From a virus (Duplodnaviria; Heunggongvirae; Uroviricota; Caudoviricetes), in IMG/VR virus record IMGVR_UViG_2778261176_000017: a DNA stretch of 43,909 nt; one strand, written 5' to 3'. The notes beneath the pieces were generated by a model. It saw nothing but the letters and a program-made list of their open reading frames with translations, made no database searches and was not told where the DNA came from. The translations under genes and the position numbers were made by a program. Of the stretch, positions 1 to 18,304 are shown one piece after another. Within the stretch, counting starts at the first letter, position 1. Each line of letters starts with the position of its first letter.

Positions 1-1236
1 CTACGATAACCGCGCATTCAACATAGCTACCTGTTCGTCGTTCATGTCATCAATCCACATACCGTAAATTTCATACACCATCTGCGCAGTTTCATGCCCC
101 ATCTGGCTGGCTATAAATGCCGGGTTCGCTCCTGCCGTCAACAGCCAGCAGGCAAAAGTATGTCGCGTATGGTACGGATTACGGCGGCGAATACCAGCAC
201 GTTTTACTGCTGCATTCCATCTCGCACCCAAACTGCTTACCGAGTAATAAGGTTTCTGTTTTCCGTTACACATCCTGGGCATGAAAACAAAATGCAGTTT
301 TTGCTTTTCGGTTCTGCCGTACTCCCGATGATAAAAAGTGATTTCGCTTTTGCGATGATGCCCGGTCAGTTTGTATTGCTCCTTCAGTGCTTCAAGAGCT
401 GGCTGTAGTAATGTTACCGTCCGGATCCCGGCATTTGTTTTTGGGGGACCGAACATATCCAGTATCGTCAGGTTTCTTCTGACATTCACAGTTCCCTTCT
501 CGAAATCCACATCCTCCCACGCCAGAGCTGCCAGTTCCCCGTGACGAAGCCCGGAGTAAACGGCAAATTTCCACAAGTTCTGGCTCTGTCCTTTTTCACT
601 TTCCATTAATGCATTGAATTCTGTTTTAGATAACGGATCTGGTTTTATTCTGTTTCGCTGTAATTTTTTTACTCCTTCAAATGGTTTGTTTGATATAAAT
701 CCCGACTGATAAGCAAAACGTAACAAAGAACAGAGCAGGGCGATATAGTTATCAACTGTGCGCACTGTTCTTCCTTTTTTGTTAGATCTTGGATTATCCA
801 GGTAAAGCGTTTCTCCATGCAACAGTTCATTCCGGTAATTTAAGATATCGCTATAACGAATATGTGATATCGGGGTACTTTCAGAAATTATTATCCTGAG
901 TGTTTTTAATTGTGATTTCGTTTTCTTCATTGTGTTTGTTGTTAACTCTGTCTCTTTAATTTTTGTCCAGATATCACAAAGCTCCCCGAATGTTTTTATG
1001 ACTCTCGTTGTCACCATTTTTGCCCCAGTGCTGGACTGGGGAAAACGTCTTAAATACTCAAATTCACCGGAGTTTATTTCATGAACTATCAGTGCTCTTA
1101 AATTTCCGGCCTTTTTAATATTACTGTTTGTAATCTCCCAGCCTTTTAATGTTTCCCGACATCGTTTTCCTCGAAACATGAACCAGATGCGAATGTTTCT
1201 ACCTCTAATCTCGACACCTGTTGGTAATTTAGACAT
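1..1236 (-). CDS. intR: Tyrosine recombinase, phage integrase (411 aa)
   Basis: ATG at 1236..1234, stop TAG at 3..1. First gene at the prophage end, adjacent to an excisionase-like ORF. Length and N-terminus (MSKLPTGVEIRGR) match recalled Rac IntR. Confidence 0.9.
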   Translation of the reverse strand: MSKLPTGVEIRGRNIRIWFMFRGKRCRETLKGWEITNSNIKKAGNLRALIVHEINSGEFEYLRRFPQSSTGAKMVTTRVIKTFGELCDIWTKIKETELTTNTMKKTKSQLKTLRIIISESTPISHIRYSDILNYRNELLHGETLYLDNPRSNKKGRTVRTVDNYIALLCSLLRFAYQSGFISNKPFEGVKKLQRNRIKPDPLSKTEFNALMESEKGQSQNLWKFAVYSGLRHGELAALAWEDVDFEKGTVNVRRNLTILDMFGPPKTNAGIRTVTLLQPALEALKEQYKLTGHHRKSEITFYHREYGRTEKQKLHFVFMPRMCNGKQKPYYSVSSLGARWNAAVKRAGIRRRNPYHTRHTFACWLLTAGANPAFIASQMGHETAQMVYEIYGMWIDDMNDEQVAMLNARLS

Positions 1237-2794: not shown

Positions 2795-5387
2795 TTGCAT
2801 ATTCCTTAGCCCAGCGGGGCAGTGATAACGTCTTAATAGCTGGCCATTCATCGGTATTGAGGCAGTCAGCCAGGGTTCGCAGATTGCGGTGATATTCCAG
2901 CTGACCTGCCTGTTTTGCTTCTTCGCCCATCATGAAAATTTCAACCGGATAACGTCCGCATTCAATAGTTGTGCTGGCAACCAGAAAAACGAAAGTTGGC
3001 TGCACTCCAAACTGTGCTTCATAACCGTCACTGTAGAATGCATCCTGAACGTGATAGCGGTAGTCGTAATAAGCGGTTTTGAATCGTTGAATATCCGCCG
3101 TAGTTTTCACGTCCATGATCCAGTGAAATTCAGGGATAATTTTGTCCGGACGGCACCGACACAAAATTCCTGTTTCAGGATCTTCCCAGTAAATTGATGA
3201 TTCAGCGTGTCCGGCGCTTTCAACAAGCCATTGCCCCAACGGCAAAGCCATAACGCTTTGATACATGAGTTCAATTTTCCGGCCTTCTTCCGCAGTGATA
3301 ACCGTTTTTCCTGTGCTTGCGCATTCCATCAGAAACGCTTTCTCTTCTTCTTTTCCGGCGTTTGTACGGCGGTTAAATTCAGGTGCTACGATAAAGCGGT
3401 TACTGAATTCTTCCGGTTCAAGTACCCGGCAGTGGAAAGCGGTTCCTAAATCGAGCGTTTTTGTCTTTGTAGTGTCCACGGGGGCATTTTTACGCCACAA
3501 ATACAGTGCCGGAGTATCAGCAATGTCATCGAGCTGAGACTTACTGACACCGGGACCCGCGTGGTAATTCTCATTCGAAATTCCGTAATAAATACCTGGC
3601 TCTATGTCTTCTACGATTACGGGATCTGCGACTTCGCCAGTTTCATCACTGCAATCGCGATGCGGATCGCTGCCAGCATTCTCATTGTGCGGATGTTCAG
3701 CGCCTTCCATTTCCTCCGGATCTTTTTCTTTAGCTTCAATCTGATTCTCTTCACCGAATGTTTCCTGGTATGTTGCGTCGCCCATCACCGCACCACAGTC
3801 AGGGCAGCTATCCCCGCCAGTCTGACCGCAGGCATTGCAGACTTTTTCCGGTTCCTGTTGCACTACTGGCTCAGGTTGATTCATATCCGGGCTGGTTTTT
3901 TCCGTTTCTGGCTGGTTCTGGTACACACAATCGCGAGTCTGGATCCCCTTTACCCATTTCGGATCGTTCGGGTCGCTAATTCCGTCAACAAATTCACCAC
4001 GTGATGCAGCAAGCAATTTATCGGCATCGACAGGATCTTTTGATGGAATGTTTTTCCGGGCTTCATGGAGTTCTGCCCGCAGTTCCTGATATTTCGCATC
4101 AACAGAATTTACCTGTGACTGAGCATCCAGCGGCTGCGTGTCCTGATGATGTTCAGTTGCGTCCGGTTCCATTGTTTCAGCCTCTCCCTGTTCAACTGCC
4201 GTTGTTCCAGATGGTTGCGGTTTTTCTTCATCATCCTGTTTTCCTTCTTCTGTTACTCGCTGCGGCATCGGGGCAGAGGAGCGACCGCAGGCAATATCCA
4301 CGATTTCCGGATCAGGGTTGGCATGATCGGTTTCAGTCAGTACTTTGTTCAGATATTCAGTGACGTGCGCGGGGATGACCTCGATCCCAATTGGTGCTTC
4401 TTTTACGGACGCAACCACGATGGCGCGGGAATAATCCAACCCGCCAGGCATGGTGATGAATTTGTCGCGGAAAACAGAAAAGGGCGGTTTATTTTCAGCG
4501 ATAATTTCCTCAATGCGTTTAGCGTGTGCCGGATGAAGGTTATAGATGTCCAGATCCATTGAACGGGCCAGTACGCCAGTGGCTACGTCGCGCGCCAGTG
4601 ACGTCAGATCGTGTACGAAACCTTCGCCGCGATCGGTGAGGTTTCCGCCGCCAGCATTAGCACCGGAAGCCGTGCGAGTGATGTGTGAAACACGATTACC
4701 CTTCATCCACTCTTTTGTCAGCAGTCCTCGATCGGTGTAGTCAGCGTTCAGGTATGCTTCGAAAAAAGCAGTTATCAGTCCCAGGTTTGAATTACCAGGA
4801 TTAGGGAAAACTTTGTCAGTGTCACGAACCAGTTTGTGGAGTTCGCGAATTTCCAGCGGGTCGAGCAGGCTGGTTTTGTGGGAAACAGCCAGGGCAGTAA
4901 CAGCCGGTAGTTCTTCAGCCCGAGCAATGTGTAATGCCTGGAGTCCGTCGCGTGAAACGTGCGTTACCGGTTTTTCGCTGCCGTGTTGAGCAAGCCAACG
5001 AATGGGCAGTTCCTGGCCAGAAATTGGGAGTAGCATATTCTCCTCAATCTCAGTCATGTCTTCGCCGTTGACGTTGGTATTGCCTTGATAGTGAGCGTTG
5101 TCTGGTGCTGCTCCCGGTTTTAGTTCCCATGTCATGGAGTCTTTGCTGAGTTGATAGCGTTCACTCCAGGTAAAATCGATCTCACCTTCAGCGGGCAGGT
5201 CATTAACGACAGGAAAATTCGTGGCAACAGCTTTAAAATAGCTGCTCAGTTTTTTACCTGACTTAACGATCAGGTAGTCCAGAGTGGCACAGGTCGATTC
5301 AAAATCGTTGCTTGCCCACAGGACGACGTCAGGTTCACCGGATGATTTTTTCGCTTTCCGTAACAGGAAGAGTGGTTTTGTGCTCAT
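2787..5387 (-). CDS. recE: Exodeoxyribonuclease VIII, RecE (866 aa, full length)
   Basis: Uninterrupted 866-aa ORF with acidic linker and C-terminal nuclease region; length and sequence match recalled Rac RecE. Confidence 0.9.
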
Positions 5388-5488
5388 TGTTTTTTAACCT
5401 CAACTCAGATTAAAATTCGTTTTGTTCAGTGAATGATCTTGCCGGATACACACTGTTCATAGCCTGCGCCATACGCAGGCTATTTCTT

Positions 5489-5764
5489 TCAGATTTCACC
5501 TTTTAATTTCATTGCAATTAGAGTTGCCAGAAATTCGGCTTTTTTTTCTGTGGGCAGATTCTTTCCGATATGCACCAGGCACATTTTTTTGACACCTTCA
5601 TCAAGTGTTTTTACGTTGCCTGATGGACCATCGATATCAACCACAGTGAATGGGGTTTCTTTATTTTCTGTTTTAATTACGTAGCCAATGCGCTTTCCTT
5701 CCAGATTCACCTCGTGAACAATGTCATCGGTAGTTACAACAGTGGCTTCATAATTGGTAATCAT
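5489..5764 (-). CDS. racC: Rac RacC-like protein (91 aa)
   Basis: ATG at 5764. Sequence MITNYEATVVTTDDIV recalled as RacC; position upstream of recE. Confidence 0.7.
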   Translation of the reverse strand: MITNYEATVVTTDDIVHEVNLEGKRIGYVIKTENKETPFTVVDIDGPSGNVKTLDEGVKKMCLVHIGKNLPTEKKAEFLATLIAMKLKGEI

Positions 5765-5838
5765 GTTTTTCTCCTTAATTAAGGTTGAGCGAATACCTGC
5801 CATTTCTGGCATAAATTCAGTTTCGAATAGTCAATTAA

Positions 5839-6009
5839 TTAAAGTTCATGTGCCATCTGGTCTTTTTCGGCACAAGCTTCACTGCAATATTTTCTCGGTT
5901 CGTCTTTTGATAAAATCCCGTGCATGAAGTGAAGCATTCTTTCAATAGCTTTGCTTTCTTCAACGTCTTTTTTGCAAAGGTGGTAAGCACATTTTATTTT
6001 CTTAGTCAT
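5839..6009 (-). CDS. ydaE: Small Cys-containing protein YdaE-like (56 aa; not in the supplied ORF track)
   Basis: Hand translation of the minus strand gives [60 protein letters not shown] sits 8 nt upstream of ATG 6009; stop TAA at 5841..5839. Lies between racC and kilR as in Rac. Confidence 0.55.
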   Translation of the reverse strand: MTKKIKCAYHLCKKDVEESKAIERMLHFMHGILSKDEPRKYCSEACAEKDQMAHEL

Positions 6010-6230
6010 CACCATGACTCCGCCTTTACAGGTAAACCATCACGACCGAGGAAGACTTTAATCATGCGGTCAGTAATGCATGTTTTTGTGGTCAGGTTAC
6101 GAATATATAGTTTTCGCTTTTTAATATTGTTTGCCGAGGCAATATATGTCCGGCCTTCATGAAGAACATAATCGCCAGGAGTCACACACTGACGTGGTAT
6201 TTCATCAGTTCCGAAGTGATGTGCAATCAT
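6009..6230 (-). CDS. kilR: Cell-division inhibitor KilR (73 aa)
   Basis: ATG at 6230. Sequence [35 protein letters not shown] recalled as Rac KilR. Confidence 0.8.
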
Positions 6231-11357: not shown

Positions 11358-11780
11358 ATGGCAAAAGTTTTTACACAGGAAGAGCGTGAAAAAATTAAGG
11401 AGCAGGTTGTTGAGCTGGTACGCCAGAGTGGGCGCGAGACGTTAAGGCAACTGGAGGCCAAGACAGGTGCGACAAGATATCTGATGAGCATTCTTGCCAG
11501 AGAGTTGGTTGCCAGTGGCGATGTATACAACTCTGGCTATGGGTTATTTCCCTCTGAACAGGCTCGTAAGGACTGGAAAAACGCCCGCAAAAAACTATCC
11601 AGGGCAAAGGTGAAAAAAACGGTTGTGGTTGATCCTGACCTTATCTGGTCATTACCAGACGGAGAAATACGCCGCTATGACAGGCGTATGAACATAATCT
11701 GTCGCGAGTGCCGGAAGAGCGAAGTTATGCAGCGTGTGCTGGCATTCTATCAGGGGCATTTTCAGGGGGCGGCGCAGTGA
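11358..11780 (+). CDS. Hypothetical protein (140 aa)
   Basis: GGAGG RBS 5 nt before ATG 11358; follows directly after the preceding gene. No recognisable motif. Confidence 0.5.
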   Translation: MAKVFTQEEREKIKEQVVELVRQSGRETLRQLEAKTGATRYLMSILARELVASGDVYNSGYGLFPSEQARKDWKNARKKLSRAKVKKTVVVDPDLIWSLPDGEIRRYDRRMNIICRECRKSEVMQRVLAFYQGHFQGAAQ

Positions 11781-12108
11781 GCAGGATTGGCTACCAGGAG
11801 TTGACCGCGCCAATGCCTTCCTTGCCGAAGTTCGGACGTGGGCGTTTAACGAGCTTTGCACGGCGTTTGACAGGCACGGAATGTTCGCTGGCCTTGATGG
11901 CAACAACGCCGTGACACATAAGCCACATAAAAGAAGTGATAAATGCGATGCTGCATTGCTCGGAACAACTTCATAAAGGAAGCGTCTGATGAGGGCAATA
12001 AAAGCTCATACAGAATTGCTATCTATTAGGACACAGGATATCAGATGAGATTACATTCCACCAATAACCAAGAAAATTACATAAGACAATAAAAATAGAT
12101 GATAAAGA

Positions 12109-12137
12109 TTGTAAAAAGCCTATCAATTTCATATGAT
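12109..12137 (+). promoter_or_regulatory. Candidate sigma70 promoter for the methyltransferase operon
   Basis: -35 TTGTAA (12109..12114), 17-nt spacer, -10 TATGAT (12132..12137), about 45 nt upstream of ATG 12183 in an AT-rich intergenic region. Confidence 0.35.
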
Positions 12138-12182
12138 TCTCGATTAGATTCATAGTATACATGATGGAATGGAACGCATAAA

Positions 12183-13223
12183 ATGAAAGCAATTGATCTT
12201 TTTTGTGGCGCTGGTGGTTTGACAGTTGGTCTAAAAATGGCTGGCTTTGATGTCATATCAGCAATCGAAAAAGAAGCTATTGTATCTGAAACCTATAGAA
12301 TCAACCATCCGGATGTTAACTTAATAAATGGGGATATAAAAAATATATCACCAGATGAATTAATGAAACAATTAAAAATTCAGCAAGGTGAACTGGATTT
12401 GTTGGCAGGTTGTCCACCATGTCAAGGATTTTCTTCGTTAAGAACAAAAAATAAAACAGTAGCTGTCTTTGATGAGAGAAATGAACTTATTTTTAATTTT
12501 TTAGATTTTGTTAAAGTCTTTTTTCCAAAAGTTGTAATGGTTGAAAATGTACCAGCTTTGGCATTTGACGAACGAATAAACATGTTTACTTCGGAGCTTA
12601 AGAAATTGGGTTATCATATCGATGATAATTCAGTTTTAATTGAAGATGCTAGTAAATTTGGTGTGCCACAAAGACGTAAGCGCATGGTACTACTTGCTTC
12701 GCGATACGGAGAGCTTACTCGTGCTCAAAAAAATAGTAATTTAATAACTGTGCGCGATGCAATAGGCCATTTGGCTCGACCTGAAAATAGCAATGATCCG
12801 CTGCACAATATATTAGAAAGAAGAACTGAGAAGGTTAAAAAAATTATAAGTCTTATTCCTAAGGATGGGGGAAGCCGCTCTCAACTTCCTTACGAGTATT
12901 GGCTGCCATGTCATAAACGATATCCAAATGGTTTTCGCGATGTTTACGGTCGTATGAGGTGGGATGATGTAGCTCCAACTATTACGAGTGGATGTACTAA
13001 TCCTTCAAAAGGTCGTTTTTTACATCCTGAACAAGATAGAGCAATAACTCTTCGAGAGGCTGCATTATTACAAACTTTTCCGAGTGATTACTATTTTCCT
13101 ATTCAATTTGGTAAAGACAAGGCTGCTTTGATGATAGGGAATGCATTGCCCCCTGAATTCATTAAGCGTCATGCTGAACTTATCAAAGAACATATAACTA
13201 AAAACGAGGCGGATTATGGATAA
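12183..13223 (+). CDS. DNA (cytosine-5)-methyltransferase (346 aa)
   Basis: Conserved m5C-MTase motifs read directly: DLFCGAGG (SAM binding), PPCQGFS (catalytic Cys), ENV, QRRKR, GNALP. Visibly AT-rich coding sequence. Confidence 0.9.
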   Translation: MKAIDLFCGAGGLTVGLKMAGFDVISAIEKEAIVSETYRINHPDVNLINGDIKNISPDELMKQLKIQQGELDLLAGCPPCQGFSSLRTKNKTVAVFDERNELIFNFLDFVKVFFPKVVMVENVPALAFDERINMFTSELKKLGYHIDDNSVLIEDASKFGVPQRRKRMVLLASRYGELTRAQKNSNLITVRDAIGHLARPENSNDPLHNILERRTEKVKKIISLIPKDGGSRSQLPYEYWLPCHKRYPNGFRDVYGRMRWDDVAPTITSGCTNPSKGRFLHPEQDRAITLREAALLQTFPSDYYFPIQFGKDKAALMIGNALPPEFIKRHAELIKEHITKNEADYG

Positions 13224-15198
13224 TAAACTATTTCTAAATTTTCATGGTAGGATAATTGATCATTTAGGTATTCAAATGTATCAAAGTCCAACAGCAGCAA
13301 TAGCTGAAATGGTTTCTAATGCTTGGGACGCGGATGCAACCGAAGTTAATATTACACTACCCACGCATGAAAATAGAACTATTGTTATAAAAGACAATGG
13401 TATTGGAATGACATTTGAAGAATGTCAAAAGAAATTTCTTACGGTTGGTTTTGATAAAAGGAAAGATAATCCTGTAGCGAAGTCGAAATTATTCAATCGA
13501 GACTTAATGGGAAGAAAAGGTATCGGAAAGTTTGCTGGTTTTGGTATTGCTGAGATTATAGAAATTTGTACTACTAGCCAAGAAACAGGTGAAAAAACTA
13601 GTTTTACTTTGGATATAAATAAGATTAGATCGTCAGATGACTACGTTAAAACTGAAAGCATGGCTATTGATGTGACCTTCCGCACAGGCCCTTCAGAATT
13701 AGAAAAAGAAAATCATGGAACAACAGTAACACTTAAGTCATTGAAAATAAACAGATTATTAAATGAGTCTTCTTTTGCTACATCTATGGCGAGAAGGTTT
13801 GCGATCAATTCTGGCGGCGATGAATTTTTAGTTCGTATTAATAATACCCCCATGCCAGTCGAAAATTTTCTTGCCACTGCAGAATATAGTTTTCCAAAAG
13901 ATTATACTGTAGATGAAAAACCTGATTCTCTTACGGAAATTGACAGTTTGGGGTATGGAAAAGAAATCGTTGATGGTTATGAGATAAAATGGAGAGTGTT
14001 TTTCTTAAAAGAAACAATCAAGGATGATGAGTTGCAAGGTATCTCGATTTACGCTCACAAAAAATTAGCACAAAGGCCGTTTATGTTTAACTTGACTGGA
14101 GGGTTGCCAAGTCAAAATGGTCCTGAATATATGACAGGGGCTGTAATTGCTGATTATTTGGATGAGTTTAATGATGATGTGATTTCTACTGAACGACAAA
14201 GATTGAATTGGAGTAGTCACCACCTTGCTAAATTAGAAGAGTGGGGACAGAAACGTGTTCGCGAATTATTAAAAATCTGGAAAGATCGGCGGGCAGATGA
14301 AAAAACCAAACTGATTGAAAGTAAAATTGATGATTTCAGAAGTAGGCTAGATAAACTAGGTGTAGAAAAAAAAACGGTTATAATGGCTTTGAAACGAATT
14401 GCATCAATCCAACAAATCGGTGCAGAGCAATTTAGGCATATAGGCAACTCTATCCTCACTGCATGGGAGGGAGGGCGTCTAAAAGAGCTTATAAGAAGCG
14501 TTGCTTCTGTTCCTGATATGGATGAAACGAAATTGCTTGAGATATTGATCGAAGCAAATACAATTCAGGCTTTACACACAGCAGAATCAGTTAAAGCTAA
14601 GCTTGATACTATAAGTGGTCTTGAGACTAGAATACGCACTAAAGAATTAGAAAATGCTGTTCGAGACTATATTGCGAAGAATCCTTGGCTGATAGCTCCA
14701 AAATGGGAGACTTATGCTATTGAGAAAAATGTCCAGCATATCGCTAGAGAAGCAGCAAAAGAATCAGACATTGAACACGATCCAAGCTTTAAAGGAAGGG
14801 TTGACTTAGTTCTTTCAAGTGGTGAACATTTGCTTGTACTTGAATTCATGAGGCCAGGGCTGAAAATAGATAAAGATCACATCAATCGCTTTGAGGAGTA
14901 TGTTAATACTTTCAGAGTTTATTTAGACTCTGCAACAGGAAGTCCATTCAAGCGAGTTTCCGGTTATCTAGTTGCTGATGATTTTTTAAAGAGAAATGCA
15001 ACGTTAAATATGAAACTGAAAACATTGAGAGAACAAGAAATGTATACATTAACTTGGGATGACCTTCTGTCTGATGCAAAGCGTCAATGGCGTGAGTTTT
15101 TAGAACACTTGTCTTCTCGTGCTCCCGAAGATCAGCGTATGAAAGAATTGTTATCTACAACTCCTGAGAAAGTGATAGATACCTCTGAAATTACTTAA
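13216..15198 (+). CDS. GHKL (Bergerat-fold) ATPase-domain protein, 660 aa, predicted ATP-dependent restriction/defence component
   Basis: N-terminal motifs EMVSNAWDA (N-box), DNGIGM (G1), GRKGIGKFAGFG (G2). ATG 13216 overlaps the MTase stop by 8 nt; GAGG RBS. C-terminal segment RVDLVLSSGEHLLVLEF is a possible, unverified nuclease core. Confidence 0.75.
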   Translation: MDNKLFLNFHGRIIDHLGIQMYQSPTAAIAEMVSNAWDADATEVNITLPTHENRTIVIKDNGIGMTFEECQKKFLTVGFDKRKDNPVAKSKLFNRDLMGRKGIGKFAGFGIAEIIEICTTSQETGEKTSFTLDINKIRSSDDYVKTESMAIDVTFRTGPSELEKENHGTTVTLKSLKINRLLNESSFATSMARRFAINSGGDEFLVRINNTPMPVENFLATAEYSFPKDYTVDEKPDSLTEIDSLGYGKEIVDGYEIKWRVFFLKETIKDDELQGISIYAHKKLAQRPFMFNLTGGLPSQNGPEYMTGAVIADYLDEFNDDVISTERQRLNWSSHHLAKLEEWGQKRVRELLKIWKDRRADEKTKLIESKIDDFRSRLDKLGVEKKTVIMALKRIASIQQIGAEQFRHIGNSILTAWEGGRLKELIRSVASVPDMDETKLLEILIEANTIQALHTAESVKAKLDTISGLETRIRTKELENAVRDYIAKNPWLIAPKWETYAIEKNVQHIAREAAKESDIEHDPSFKGRVDLVLSSGEHLLVLEFMRPGLKIDKDHINRFEEYVNTFRVYLDSATGSPFKRVSGYLVADDFLKRNATLNMKLKTLREQEMYTLTWDDLLSDAKRQWREFLEHLSSRAPEDQRMKELLSTTPEKVIDTSEIT

Positions 15199-15266
15199 TA
15201 GCTGTTCATCGTACTAAAAAGCTGCAGTAGTGCTGTGGACTCCCCAGCAATGGGCGAATAGAAAAG

Positions 15267-15322
15267 GCAGGCATAGTGTTTTGTGATTGCAACCAATTCA
15301 ATGAGATCATCTCTATGCCTGC
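15267..15322. repeat. Perfect 10-bp inverted repeat with 36-nt spacer
   Basis: GCAGGCATAG (15267..15276) and CTATGCCTGC (15313..15322), about 70 nt downstream of the ATPase stop. No U-tract follows directly. Confidence 0.5.
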
Positions 15323-16085
15323 TCGCCAAGTGTGACAGAATTTTTACCGCAATGCGTTAGCACCGCTTGATACTCCCCTACAAAATGCTTTGCCGGATGC
15401 CACTATTGTTCTCATCAATAGCAATCGCTAGTGCTGGCAAGTATCGGATGTTATTTAGCCAGTACAGCCCATACAAAAAATCAAATCAAATGCGTTTACC
15501 AATTACTTGGAAATGAATTTCTTTACCACAGTATCCTACTAATTTTCAGAAATATTACTGCTATACAGACGAATTAGTTTTCTATTTATGGCATGATTTT
15601 TATACTCATCATACTGATTTGAAACGACATTTGATCTCCTCGCAGAGATGGATAGTTTCTTCGGAGAATCAGCAAAATGCAGAGTTAAAACAGATTTTTA
15701 TTAAAATTATTGCCGGAATATTAAAATCAAAAAGTAAGAGTAATCAGCGTCACCAATGAGGACATTTCAGACCGTTTGGTCCCAGCACATAATTAAAATT
15801 CGCACGGTACTGGGTTCCGTTTCTAATCACCTGGTAAGTGCTTAGAATATAGTGATAGTAAATTAGGTATTATATGCGAGCACTTTCAGCCCTTATGCAT
15901 TTTGCCTGCTGAATCTGAAGAGCAAAAAACAATCACTTATTTGATTATATGCATAACAATAAATAAAAGTCATTGTGCCTGCGCATAAAACAAACAAATA
16001 TACGGCGTGAAATAAATATTTTTAAGGTTAATATTTTTGTCTCTATGTGGATATAACCTCTTGTACTTATAAAGTTGGAGGCATC

Positions 16086-16298
16086 GTGGAAAAAATAAAG
16101 AAACTATTTAGTAGCAAATACGCAGTCATACGTCGTGATGATCTGTCAGTTATAGTCGAAATGGATTACTTCCCTGAAAACCAAAAATCAATGATGTATC
16201 GTAATGGGCGAAAGGCAATTTTTTTACCGATGAGGTTAAGTGACATTATGGGAAATGATAAACTGCTGGATGAATTGCGAGTCAGAGCATCCTGTTAG
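16086..16298 (+). CDS. Hypothetical small protein (70 aa, GTG start)
   Basis: GGAGG RBS (16076..16080) 5 nt before GTG 16086; first ORF after a roughly 890-bp AT-rich non-coding stretch. Confidence 0.4.
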   Translation: MEKIKKLFSSKYAVIRRDDLSVIVEMDYFPENQKSMMYRNGRKAIFLPMRLSDIMGNDKLLDELRVRASC

Positions 16299-16369
16299 TA
16301 TTGGTATTAATTCTGGTATACTGCACAACGGGCTGAACACCCATTCTACTGCGCCAGCGGAGAACTACG

Positions 16370-16969
16370 ATGGCGCATATACAACTGGTCAAACAAACTT
16401 CTTCTGGTTTACTTCTCCCGGCGACGCCGGAGAGTTGCGATTTTCTGCATCAAATCAAAATAGGCGAGTGGATACACGCAGACTTTAAGCGTGTGCGTAA
16501 CTACGCATTCCACAAGCGTTTTTTCAAACTCCTGCAACTGGGATTCGATTACTGGACTCCGGTCGGTGGGGCGATCACGCCTCGCGAACGAGAACTGCTG
16601 TCTGGTTTCGTGGATTACCTGTGCGAATCAGTTGGTCGGGAACACACGCCAGCCCTGAGTGATGCCGCAGAGCAATATCTGAATACAGTTGCGACACGCA
16701 GAACTCGGGATACGGCATTGCTAAAGTCGTTTGAGGCTTTTCGCGAGTGGGTAACCATTCAGGCTGGATTTTACACCGAACATTTTTATCCGGACGGTAG
16801 CCATGGGCGTCGGGCGAAATCCATCGCTTTTGCGAATATGGACGAAACCGAGTTTCAGCAGGTTTATAAATCTGTTCTGAATGTGCTGTGGAACTGGATT
16901 CTGTTCCGTAAATTTTCCTCTCCGGAACAAGTCGAAAATGTGGCCGCGCAGCTGCTGGAGTTTGCGTAA
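16370..16969 (+). CDS. nin-region protein (199 aa), YbcN/DUF1367-like by recall
   Basis: Position upstream of Q, with stop/start overlap to the next gene; family assignment is from memory only. Confidence 0.55.
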   Translation: MAHIQLVKQTSSGLLLPATPESCDFLHQIKIGEWIHADFKRVRNYAFHKRFFKLLQLGFDYWTPVGGAITPRERELLSGFVDYLCESVGREHTPALSDAAEQYLNTVATRRTRDTALLKSFEAFREWVTIQAGFYTEHFYPDGSHGRRAKSIAFANMDETEFQQVYKSVLNVLWNWILFRKFSSPEQVENVAAQLLEFA

Positions 16970-18150: not shown

Positions 18151-18226
<76 letters not shown>

Positions 18227-18229
18227 TAT

Positions 18230-18304
<75 letters not shown>

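Follow-up and report, generated by a model that had tools for sequence, protein, structure and literature searches.

A probable restriction-modification cassette of a Rac-like prophage pairs a C5-cytosine methyltransferase with a divergent relative of the HgiDII/BbrUII-type GHKL-fused restriction enzymes

Restriction enzymes fused to a GHKL ATPase have been recognised at the sequence level since 2008, the year in which R.HgiDII was described as having a GHKL domain at its N terminus (PMC2441816). In the paraMORC3 proteins (Iyer, Abhiman and Aravind 2008, PMC2292703), a GHKL ATPase and an S5-like domain are followed by a C-terminal domain of the restriction-endonuclease fold; these proteins are sporadically distributed and laterally mobile, and they are associated with cytosine methylases and Vsr. 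In VcSduA, a GHKL-Shedu protein (Shedu type I-D) from Vibrio cholerae, anti-phage defence is abolished both by the E27A mutation in the ATPase and by the K557A mutation in the nuclease (PMC12137116; Gu et al. bioRxiv 10.1101/2023.08.10.552793).

The window analysed here is a 43,909-nucleotide stretch of DNA from a Caudoviricetes virus record (IMGVR_UViG_2778261176_000017). At positions ~12100-15200, it contains what is probably a restriction-modification (R-M) cassette, in which a C5-cytosine (m5C) methyltransferase (MTase) would mark DNA and a coupled 660-aa protein would restrict it. The cassette is cargo of a Rac-like lambdoid prophage of E. coli and occupies a variable slot there. Both open reading frames proposed in an earlier, sequence-only reading of this DNA were recovered (Table 1). 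They form a two-gene pair in which the ATG of the second gene falls, as that reading had it, 8 nt within the first.

Table 1. Features of the cassette and its borders, in window coordinates
Feature	Positions	Strand	Basis or remarks
Upstream leader, promoter-like	12100..12182	+	TTGTAA (12109-12114), 17-nt spacer, TATGAT (12132-12137)
C5-cytosine DNA methyltransferase, 346 aa, modification subunit	12183..13223	+	PF00145, TIGR00675, PADLOC MTase_II
Junction, predicted translational coupling	13206..13223	+	GAGG Shine-Dalgarno sequence 13206-13209, ATG 13216, MTase stop (TAA) 13221-13223
GHKL-ATPase/nuclease fusion, 660 aa, predicted restriction subunit	13216..15198	+	HgiDII/BbrUII-like; paraMORC3 architecture
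GHKL ATPase (aa 1-~200) and beta-rich middle/transducer domain (aa ~205-330)	13216..14205	+	PF13589, Foldseek
Long helical, coiled-coil-like linker (aa ~335-475)	14218..14640	+	AF2 secondary structure
C-terminal PD-(D/E)xK-fold nuclease domain (aa ~479-634)	14650..15117	+	
D530	14803-14805		
E543	14842-14844		
M545	14848-14850		Lys position
H555	14878-14880		Clade-specific His
Trailing AT-rich sequence, ~700 bp	15199..15900	.	Accompanies the cassette in E. coli only

The product of the first gene is a C5-cytosine MTase. It matches the Pfam family PF00145 (E = 1.3e-55), scores above the cutoff of TIGR00675 (155.8 versus 100.65 bits), and has MTase_II (PDLC03378; E = 1.2e-80) as its best PADLOC match. 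The motifs DLFCGAGG, PPCQGFS, ENV, QRRKR, and GNALP, picked out earlier by eye, are all found in the translation, with motifs I (FxGxG), IV (PCQ), VI (ENV), VIII (QRR), and X (GN) present. With the MTase of the bona fide BbrUII/HgiDII family member (see below) it shares only 34% identity, so the GTCGAC specificity of M.BbrUII/M.HgiDII is not transferable to it. The window shows no shortage of GTCGAC (3 observed versus 4.5 expected), such counts being uninformative. Palindrome statistics for the window, which are too noisy for site prediction, show low AGCGCT, GCATGC, and GCCGGC; low values of these three are usual in coliphage DNA.

Against NF050001 (“BbrUII/HgiDII family restriction enzyme”), the 660-aa protein scores 300.6 bits (E = 2.5e-89), its residues 13 to 634 aligning with positions 9 to 647 of the 659 in the profile. 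This score does not reach the curated cutoff of 550 bits, so the equivalog function is not transferred from NF050001. It also matches PADLOC REase_II profiles, PDLC03419 (E = 1.2e-52) among them. With overlapping genes that match MTase_II and REase_II, as in the PADLOC-style definition of a Type II R-M system, the locus would be called RM type II by standard defence finders. Protein searches returned no BbrUII/HgiDII-named sequences; the bona fide NF050001 member (L086; 800.8 bits), encoded on a Halobaculum plasmid, came from a plasmid collection. In BLASTP it aligns with the 660-aa protein over 591 aa with 26% identity. Profile, BLASTP, and AF2 comparisons agree on the family architecture of a GHKL ATPase, a long C-terminal region, and the family C-terminal domain. 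Where the (D/E)xK motif should have its canonical Lys, the 660-aa protein has Met: its D530...E543-F-M545 aligns with D...D-L-K of the Halobaculum protein.

The sequence-only reading had taken the pair for a candidate uncharacterised ATP-dependent R-M-like or defence module. It was right about prophage cargo, and its interpretation of the pair is partly supported; the framing as uncharacterised is not supported, given the full-length NF050001 match, the REase_II match, and the descriptions of the same build in 2008 (R.HgiDII and paraMORC3) and then in GHKL-Shedu. Its remark that the neighbourhood lacks a conventional Type II endonuclease misleads, since one of the two products, the GHKL protein, is related to a named family of Type II restriction endonucleases (REases), BbrUII/HgiDII. 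Judged by sequence, the cassette is a divergent, poorly annotated member of the HgiDII/BbrUII-type enzymes and not a new defence class.

At the N terminus, the GHKL motifs EMVSNAWDA (aa 31-39), DNGIGM (aa 60-65), and GRKGIGKFAGFG (aa 99-110) are confirmed, and PF13589 is matched at aa 25-169 (E = 9.8e-24). The C-terminal sequence RVDLVLSSGEHLLVLEF, quoted earlier as a possible restriction-endonuclease-like core, is found at aa 528-544. Structure prediction, which had been suggested as a check, was run with AF2 (pLDDT 78.9) and yields an N-terminal GHKL domain with a middle domain, a helical arm, and a C-terminal PD-(D/E)xK fold. Foldseek searches match GRP94/TRAP1/Hsp90, MORC2, MORC3, and SMCHD1 over ~400 aa, with E values from 1e-13 to 1e-10. 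Sequence searches of PDB show matches to the GHKL domain only (MutL, TRAP1, and MORC), the family being one without a solved structure. In 40 homologs, residues E31, N35, D38, D60, G62, G64, G99, K101, G102, G104, G168, and K283 are invariant, as are D530 and E543 of the nuclease domain, and T169 is nearly so (≥90%).

Of the E-D-ExK motif, the protein has E498, D530, and E543, with Met in place of Lys. This position is Met across the whole clade, whereas Lys is kept in the bona fide member and in other subfamilies (ExK); therefore, the nuclease chemistry is not assured. On the following helix, a clade-specific His is found in 149 of 150 non-Lys sequences versus 2 of 65 Lys sequences. The Lys-to-Met change coupled to this His looks like active-site remodelling rather than decay. 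We tentatively suggest, as a possibility that falls well short of the probable, that a very large, uncharacterised clade of HgiDII-like enzymes is first viewed here, with at least 1,787 proteins (E ≤ 1e-5), all named “ATP-binding protein.” The swap of Lys for Met and the recruited His would then give an ATP-gated clamp nuclease an active site of non-canonical type, and the chassis of the clade would join two defence logics, acting alone, as in Shedu (VcSduA), or leaving the self/non-self decision to an m5C MTase.

The prophage location claimed from the letters agrees with the gene content: recE, racC, kilR, sieB, ydaV, and trkG identify a Rac-like prophage, and the cassette is flanked by prophage replication and nin-region genes only. 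A 3.06-kb unit transfers en bloc among lambdoid prophages of E. coli, Klebsiella, and Lelliottia, with 81-83% nucleotide identity, and a version with 67% identity belongs to a P2-like prophage, where its neighbours are gpA (replication) on one side and the portal gene on the other. In one P2-type copy, the R gene is intact and the M gene is frameshifted, which counts against the R-M reading unless it stems from a homopolymer sequencing error, as it may. The copy in O177:H21 has a real interruption of R by an IS element, with a 9-bp duplication at 15075-15083; its M gene has lost 1 nt from an A6 run, a frameshift similar to one at another locus (L083), and either may be a sequencing error. For this reason, O177:H21 is given little weight and was dropped as a natural double knockout. 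The phage collection contains no megablast-level match to the cassette. The exact 660-aa protein is found on ~650 public contigs, named only “ATP-binding protein,” and close variants in Salmonella and Klebsiella are likewise so named.

The Klebsiella (L082) and Lelliottia (L003) copies are homologous to the window from 12100/12101 onward. The TTGTAA-17-TATGAT hexamers noted previously are present in the sequence and score 9/12 in a promoter scan. The scan shows no excess of promoter-like sites in the AT-rich sequence (8, versus 15.9 ± 3.8 in shuffles). Both hexamers are conserved at 12/12 positions in the Klebsiella and Lelliottia copies, and the spacer diverges. It is only this conservation in three species, not the scan, that suggests a promoter here. 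On the 3' side, the full 15199-16369 query is present in 19 E. coli genomes, and the cassette in equally many; the initial ~700 bp of this query have no other match among the records listed and are absent from the Klebsiella and Lelliottia copies. Searches of the 15.2-16.4 kb segment found no ORF of ≥50 aa, no Rfam match at E ≤ 0.1, and no vsr remnant (tblastn with 53 neighbour ORFs), and the idea of a third gene or RNA 3' of the cassette was dropped.

Members of this GHKL-nuclease clade show a conserved linkage to m5C MTases and Vsr. The sample consists of 44 loci of the close family. An m5C MTase is found ≤150 bp away in 26 of these, which come from Proteobacteria, Chloroflexi, Bacteroidota, Planctomycetota, CPR, and an archaeal MAG, and at 475 to 2629 bp in 10; the other 8, 6 of them actinobacterial, have none within 5 kb, and two of these MTase-less loci adjoin an AspBHI-like m5C-dependent enzyme. 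The MTase gene can be upstream, downstream, or convergent, often in a tight junction with a 4- or 8-nt overlap, in either gene order. A Pfam census of 149 neighbouring ORFs has DNA_methylase (30) and Vsr (12) as its top families. The identities of R and M co-vary (r = 0.41), and the nearest REase neighbour falls in the same MTase cluster in 31 of 34 cases.

This linkage bears on whether the GHKL-nuclease might be a self-contained, infection-sensing nuclease of the Shedu type (type I-D, VcSduA-like), with the MTase as an orphan or an independent defence-island neighbour. We consider this unlikely, since the MTase is adjacent at most loci across phyla with stop/start overlaps in both gene orders, R and M co-vary and move as one 3.06-kb block, and Vsr recurs as a third gene. 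Furthermore, SduA_C/DUF4263 (PF14082) is not matched by the full protein at E ≤ 0.1 or by its C-terminal domain at E ≤ 0.05, and there is no PADLOC SduA match; sub-threshold or precomputed PF14082 matches are seen in the ExK-bearing relatives. Loss of the catalytic Lys would suit a different role, in which the 660-aa protein is not a restriction nuclease and instead serves as a MutL/NucS-like partner of cytosine methylation, e.g., in processing T:G mismatches (m5C deamination) with Vsr, or as a non-cutting ATP-driven clamp. Such a role is improbable, given that D530 and E543 remain invariant, that the Lys-to-Met change is tightly coupled to the clade-specific His, and that the characterised relatives are restriction enzymes or defence nucleases. 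In addition, Vsr co-occurs with the GHKL-nuclease and does not replace it, and the location in a prophage hotspot suits defence.

The MTase also matches PADLOC DruM2 (E = 2.7e-79) and several DrmMII profiles, as it would if the pair were a fragment of a larger system, Druantia type II (DruM) or DISARM (DrmMII), to which the MTase belonged. This has very little probability: the similarity is a generic one among m5C MTases, with MTase_II as the best match, the flanks carry no DruE/F/G or Drm helicase genes, and the neighbour census found no Druantia or DISARM core genes. Of the Druantia type II set (DruM with DruE, DruF, and DruG), only an MTase resembling DruM is seen. The Druantia, DISARM, and Mza readings were rejected, as their partner genes are missing.

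In the favoured R-M reading, the MTase would mark host and prophage DNA at a short target, and the translationally coupled 660-aa protein would be the restriction subunit. Like MutL, MORC, and Hsp90, this protein might dimerise through its GHKL heads when it binds ATP and so close a clamp around DNA; two FokI/NucS-like nuclease domains would thus be brought together and would cut DNA without the m5C mark. We infer nuclease activity, ATP gating, a methylation block, and an anti-phage effect for this protein; its predicted cleavage may depend on ATP. Recasting an “ATP-binding protein” as the restriction partner of an MTase alters the reading of these prophage cargo genes, and the cassette may matter for transformation barriers in carrier strains. 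As an E. coli-native, two-gene, prophage-borne example, it is a convenient model for the role of the ATPase in GHKL-fused restriction enzymes, and in it the unusual Lys-to-Met/His active site could be put to the test as well.

Among known systems, R.HgiDII and R.BbrUII (Type II R-M, GTCGAC) share with the 660-aa protein the length class, the order of GHKL, middle, helical, and C-terminal regions, and an m5C MTase partner upstream, with the genes overlapping or nearly so (M-then-R in the Halobaculum member). They differ from it in the active site, where the 660-aa protein has Met for the (D/E)xK Lys and a His on the next helix. The paraMORC3 proteins, compared by their published description, resemble the clade in architecture, links to cytosine methylases and Vsr, distribution, and mobility; their conserved motif is E-D-ExK, whereas that of the clade is E-D-ExM. 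GHKL-Shedu shares the GHKL ATPase, the Hsp90/MORC-like middle domain, the C-terminal PD-(D/E)xK nuclease, and a predicted dimeric clamp, but VcSduA acts without a methyltransferase and has the canonical Lys (K557), whereas the 660-aa protein is MTase-linked and has Met. With MutL, MORC, and Hsp90, the 660-aa protein has in common the Bergerat-fold motifs and the transducer-domain fold; the C-terminal dimerisation/endonuclease domain of MutL is absent from it, and a PD-(D/E)xK nuclease domain is fused instead.

The two genes proposed in the sequence-only reading, a C5-cytosine methyltransferase gene (M) and a gene for a 660-aa GHKL-ATPase protein (R), are found at the positions that it assigned, and all the methyltransferase and GHKL motifs that it quoted are present in the respective translations. 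The M product matches Pfam family PF00145 (E value of 1.3e-55) and scores above the cutoff of TIGR00675, and the GHKL domain of the R product corresponds to PF13589 (residues 25 to 169, E value of 9.8e-24). The ATG of R lies 8 nt inside M, which ends in a TAA stop at 13221-13223, so the proposed overlap is confirmed, and is preceded by a GAGG Shine-Dalgarno sequence. The suggested promoter, TTGTAA-17-TATGAT, does exist, but its surroundings show no enrichment: a scan of this AT-rich stretch finds 8 promoter-like sites versus 15.9 +/- 3.8 in shuffled sequences, and such a site, taken alone, carries little weight. The only real support for a putative promoter comes from the 83-bp cassette leader, in which both hexamers are identical in Escherichia coli, Klebsiella, and Lelliottia while the spacer varies.

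Features of the M-R cassette (nucleotide positions in the window, or residues of the 660-aa protein)
Feature	Position	Strand	Basis
DUF977-DUF1367 slot	11780-16370		
TTGTAA-17-TATGAT site	12109-12137		hexamers conserved in three species
C5-cytosine methyltransferase, 346 aa	12183..13223	+	PF00145, TIGR00675, motifs
GAGG Shine-Dalgarno of R	13206-13209		
GHKL-ATPase/nuclease protein, 660 aa	13216..15198	+	PF13589, NF050001
GHKL domain	aa 1-~200		AlphaFold2 model
Beta-rich middle domain	aa ~205-330		AlphaFold2 model
Long helices	aa ~335-475		AlphaFold2 model
Alpha/beta C-terminal domain	aa ~479-634		AlphaFold2 model

Homologs of R, sampled at one genome per species, occupy 79 loci, 44 of which, from numerous bacterial phyla and one archaeal MAG, represent the window's clade. 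An m5C methyltransferase gene is found within 150 bp of R in 26 of these 44, located upstream, downstream, or convergently, often with 4- or 8-nt overlaps. Among the Pfam domains of 149 neighboring ORFs, DNA_methylase (30) and Vsr (12) are far above all others. Such linkage to methyltransferases and Vsr is a classic hallmark of m5C restriction-modification (R-M) modules, with or without Vsr; the E. coli copy contains no vsr gene or remnant. The sequence identities of the nuclease and methyltransferase covary (r = 0.41), and the nearest nuclease neighbor falls in the same methyltransferase cluster in 31 of 34 pairs.

No m5C methyltransferase is found within 5 kb in 8 of the 44 clade loci, 6 of them actinobacterial. 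Two of the latter, in Actinacidiphila (L018:3512-4831) and Streptomyces (L021:3516-4814), adjoin a divergently transcribed gene for an AspBHI-like m5C-dependent enzyme (RE_AspBHI_N plus Mrr_cat), which would clash with any resident m5C methyltransferase whose specificity overlapped. In Streptomyces (L024:6997-10612) and Streptacidiphilus (L026:7039-10666), the homolog is flanked by a DUF6339 gene and two unannotated genes. The same kind of set is found on a Halobaculum plasmid (L086:5594-7686) beside a bona fide BbrUII/HgiDII-family enzyme and may represent a recurrent companion module. An Azovibrio MAG (L034:3008-8630) has an HNH endonuclease gene between the two cassette genes, followed by a 550-aa ORF whose N terminus, by eye, resembles OLD/AAA-type ATPases; this ORF was part of the pooled Pfam domain count of neighbors.

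The cassette had been taken for prophage cargo, and it does lie within a Rac-like lambdoid prophage of E. coli that carries recE, racC, kilR, sieB, ydaV, and trkG. The pair forms a low-GC island (0.32 to 0.41, versus ~0.5 in the flanks) bordered by DUF977 and DUF1367 genes. In other E. coli genomes, this position, a variable cargo slot of Rac-like/lambdoid prophages, holds unrelated cargo such as KilA-N, an Sll1717-family P-loop ATPase with Hok/Gef, DUF1971, or SAM-dependent methyltransferases. The cassette is found in 19 of 5,426 complete E. coli genomes (at least 99.7% identity), the identical 660-aa protein in ~650 public contigs, and near-identical forms in Salmonella and Klebsiella. The mobile unit is sharply delimited, with homology to Klebsiella and Lelliottia copies, likewise within lambdoid prophages, extending from 12100 to ~15160 at 81 to 83% nucleotide identity. 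Three E. coli P2-like prophages (L083 to L085, genes at 2968-6013) carry a 67%-identical pair between the gpA replication gene and the portal gene; in L083 a Transposase_mut transposase gene adjoins it. Directly 3' of R, ~700 bp of AT-rich DNA (15199-15900), with no ORF of at least 50 aa and no Rfam match, travels with the E. coli cassette but not with its Klebsiella and Lelliottia copies; E. coli genomes matching the full 15199-16369 query number 19, as do the cassette carriers. Genes for tRNA-Thr(TGT) and tRNA-Gly(TCC) are located at 18151-18304, in the prophage late-regulatory region.

Natural disruptions also occur. In E. coli O177:H21 (L002), ISVsa5 is inserted within the 3' end of R (window equivalent 15075-15083, 9-bp target duplication), shortening the protein to 623 aa, and M is frameshifted by a 1-nt deletion (A6 to A5, 12338-12343). 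In L083, M has lost 1 nt from an A-run and R is intact. Long-read sequencing error could account for both frameshifts, which therefore bear little weight either way.

The AlphaFold2 model of the 660-aa protein, built from 40 homologs, has a pLDDT of 78.9. In Foldseek searches, its first ~400 residues align with GRP94, TRAP1, Hsp90, MORC2, MORC3, and SMCHD1; a PDB sequence search found no solved structure for the family. All ATP-binding residues, as well as D530 and E543 of the C-terminal domain, are invariant in 40/40 homologs, and of 226 aligned sequences, 212 retain the latter two, while 10 of the 14 exceptions have gaps in both columns. Canonical motifs characterize related subfamilies: standalone proteobacterial proteins, for example, have RPDLLL...LIEFKRP, and a further group has RIDFLC...VIEIKRP. 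The Halobaculum enzyme has D...D-L-K, whereas the window's clade has E-F-M in place of (D/E)xK. This change is coupled to an Asp after the fourth strand and to a His ten residues downstream, found in 149 of 150 non-Lys sequences versus 2 of 65 Lys sequences. Because it marks essentially one clade, the pattern counts as one evolutionary event. It is stably maintained and, by inference, looks like a remodeled active site rather than decay.

In the best-supported reading, which is probably correct, the methyltransferase would protect resident DNA and the GHKL-nuclease would restrict unmarked DNA, with the GHKL heads dimerizing on ATP and closing a clamp that would pair two nuclease domains. Of this protector-effector arrangement, already put forward from the sequence, the domains, family, linkage, and mobility are established, whereas cleavage, ATP gating, methyl-sensitivity, and phage defense are what we infer. 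The existence of standalone relatives would fit a Shedu-like solo nuclease next to an unrelated methyltransferase, but the tight, covarying linkage of the two genes contradicts this unlikely alternative. The missing Lys, a NucS match, and the Vsr neighbors could instead point to a nonrestriction, MutL/NucS-like role linked to m5C damage, which we also consider improbable; that the pair is a fragment of Druantia or DISARM is very improbable indeed. It is conceivable, if rather doubtful, that the clade combines a remodeled active site with a bridge between Shedu and R-M on one chassis.

Palindrome counts within the window are uninformative as to the recognition site. GTCGAC is not underrepresented relative to the Markov expectation. 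Several GC-rich 6-bp palindromes are strongly so: AGCGCT (0 observed versus 7.4 expected), GCATGC (1 versus 8.4), GCCGGC (2 versus 12.7), and CAGCTG (5 versus 17.3).

The module is not as uncharacterized as had been suggested, since its architecture is already in the literature and standard tools would assign it to type II R-M. PADLOC matches R to two REase_II models and M to MTase_II. Residues 13 to 634 of R align with positions 9 to 647 (of 659) of NF050001, "BbrUII/HgiDII family restriction enzyme" (E value of 2.5e-89), at 300.6 bits, short of the 550-bit equivalog cutoff; the Halobaculum member scores 800.8. R.HgiDII was described as an N-terminal GHKL domain with a then-unassigned C-terminal domain, among five listed GHKL-containing restriction enzyme subfamilies (Orlowski and Bujnicki 2008, PMC2441816). 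ParaMORC3, which combines GHKL, S5, and a C-terminal restriction-endonuclease-fold domain, has been tied to cytosine methylases and Vsr (Iyer, Abhiman and Aravind 2008, PMC2292703). The GHKL-nuclease architecture now falls under Shedu type I-D, and in VcSduA of Vibrio cholerae the ATPase mutation E27A and the nuclease mutation K557A each abolish phage defense (PMC12137116). Our literature search found no characterization of the window's clade, and RefSeq labels M "DNA cytosine methyltransferase" and R "ATP-binding protein." The clade is only 26% identical to a true BbrUII/HgiDII family member, and the methyltransferases are only 34% identical, so the GTCGAC specificity is not transferable. The system is thus of a known kind, represented here by a divergent, universally underannotated clade with a noncanonical catalytic motif.
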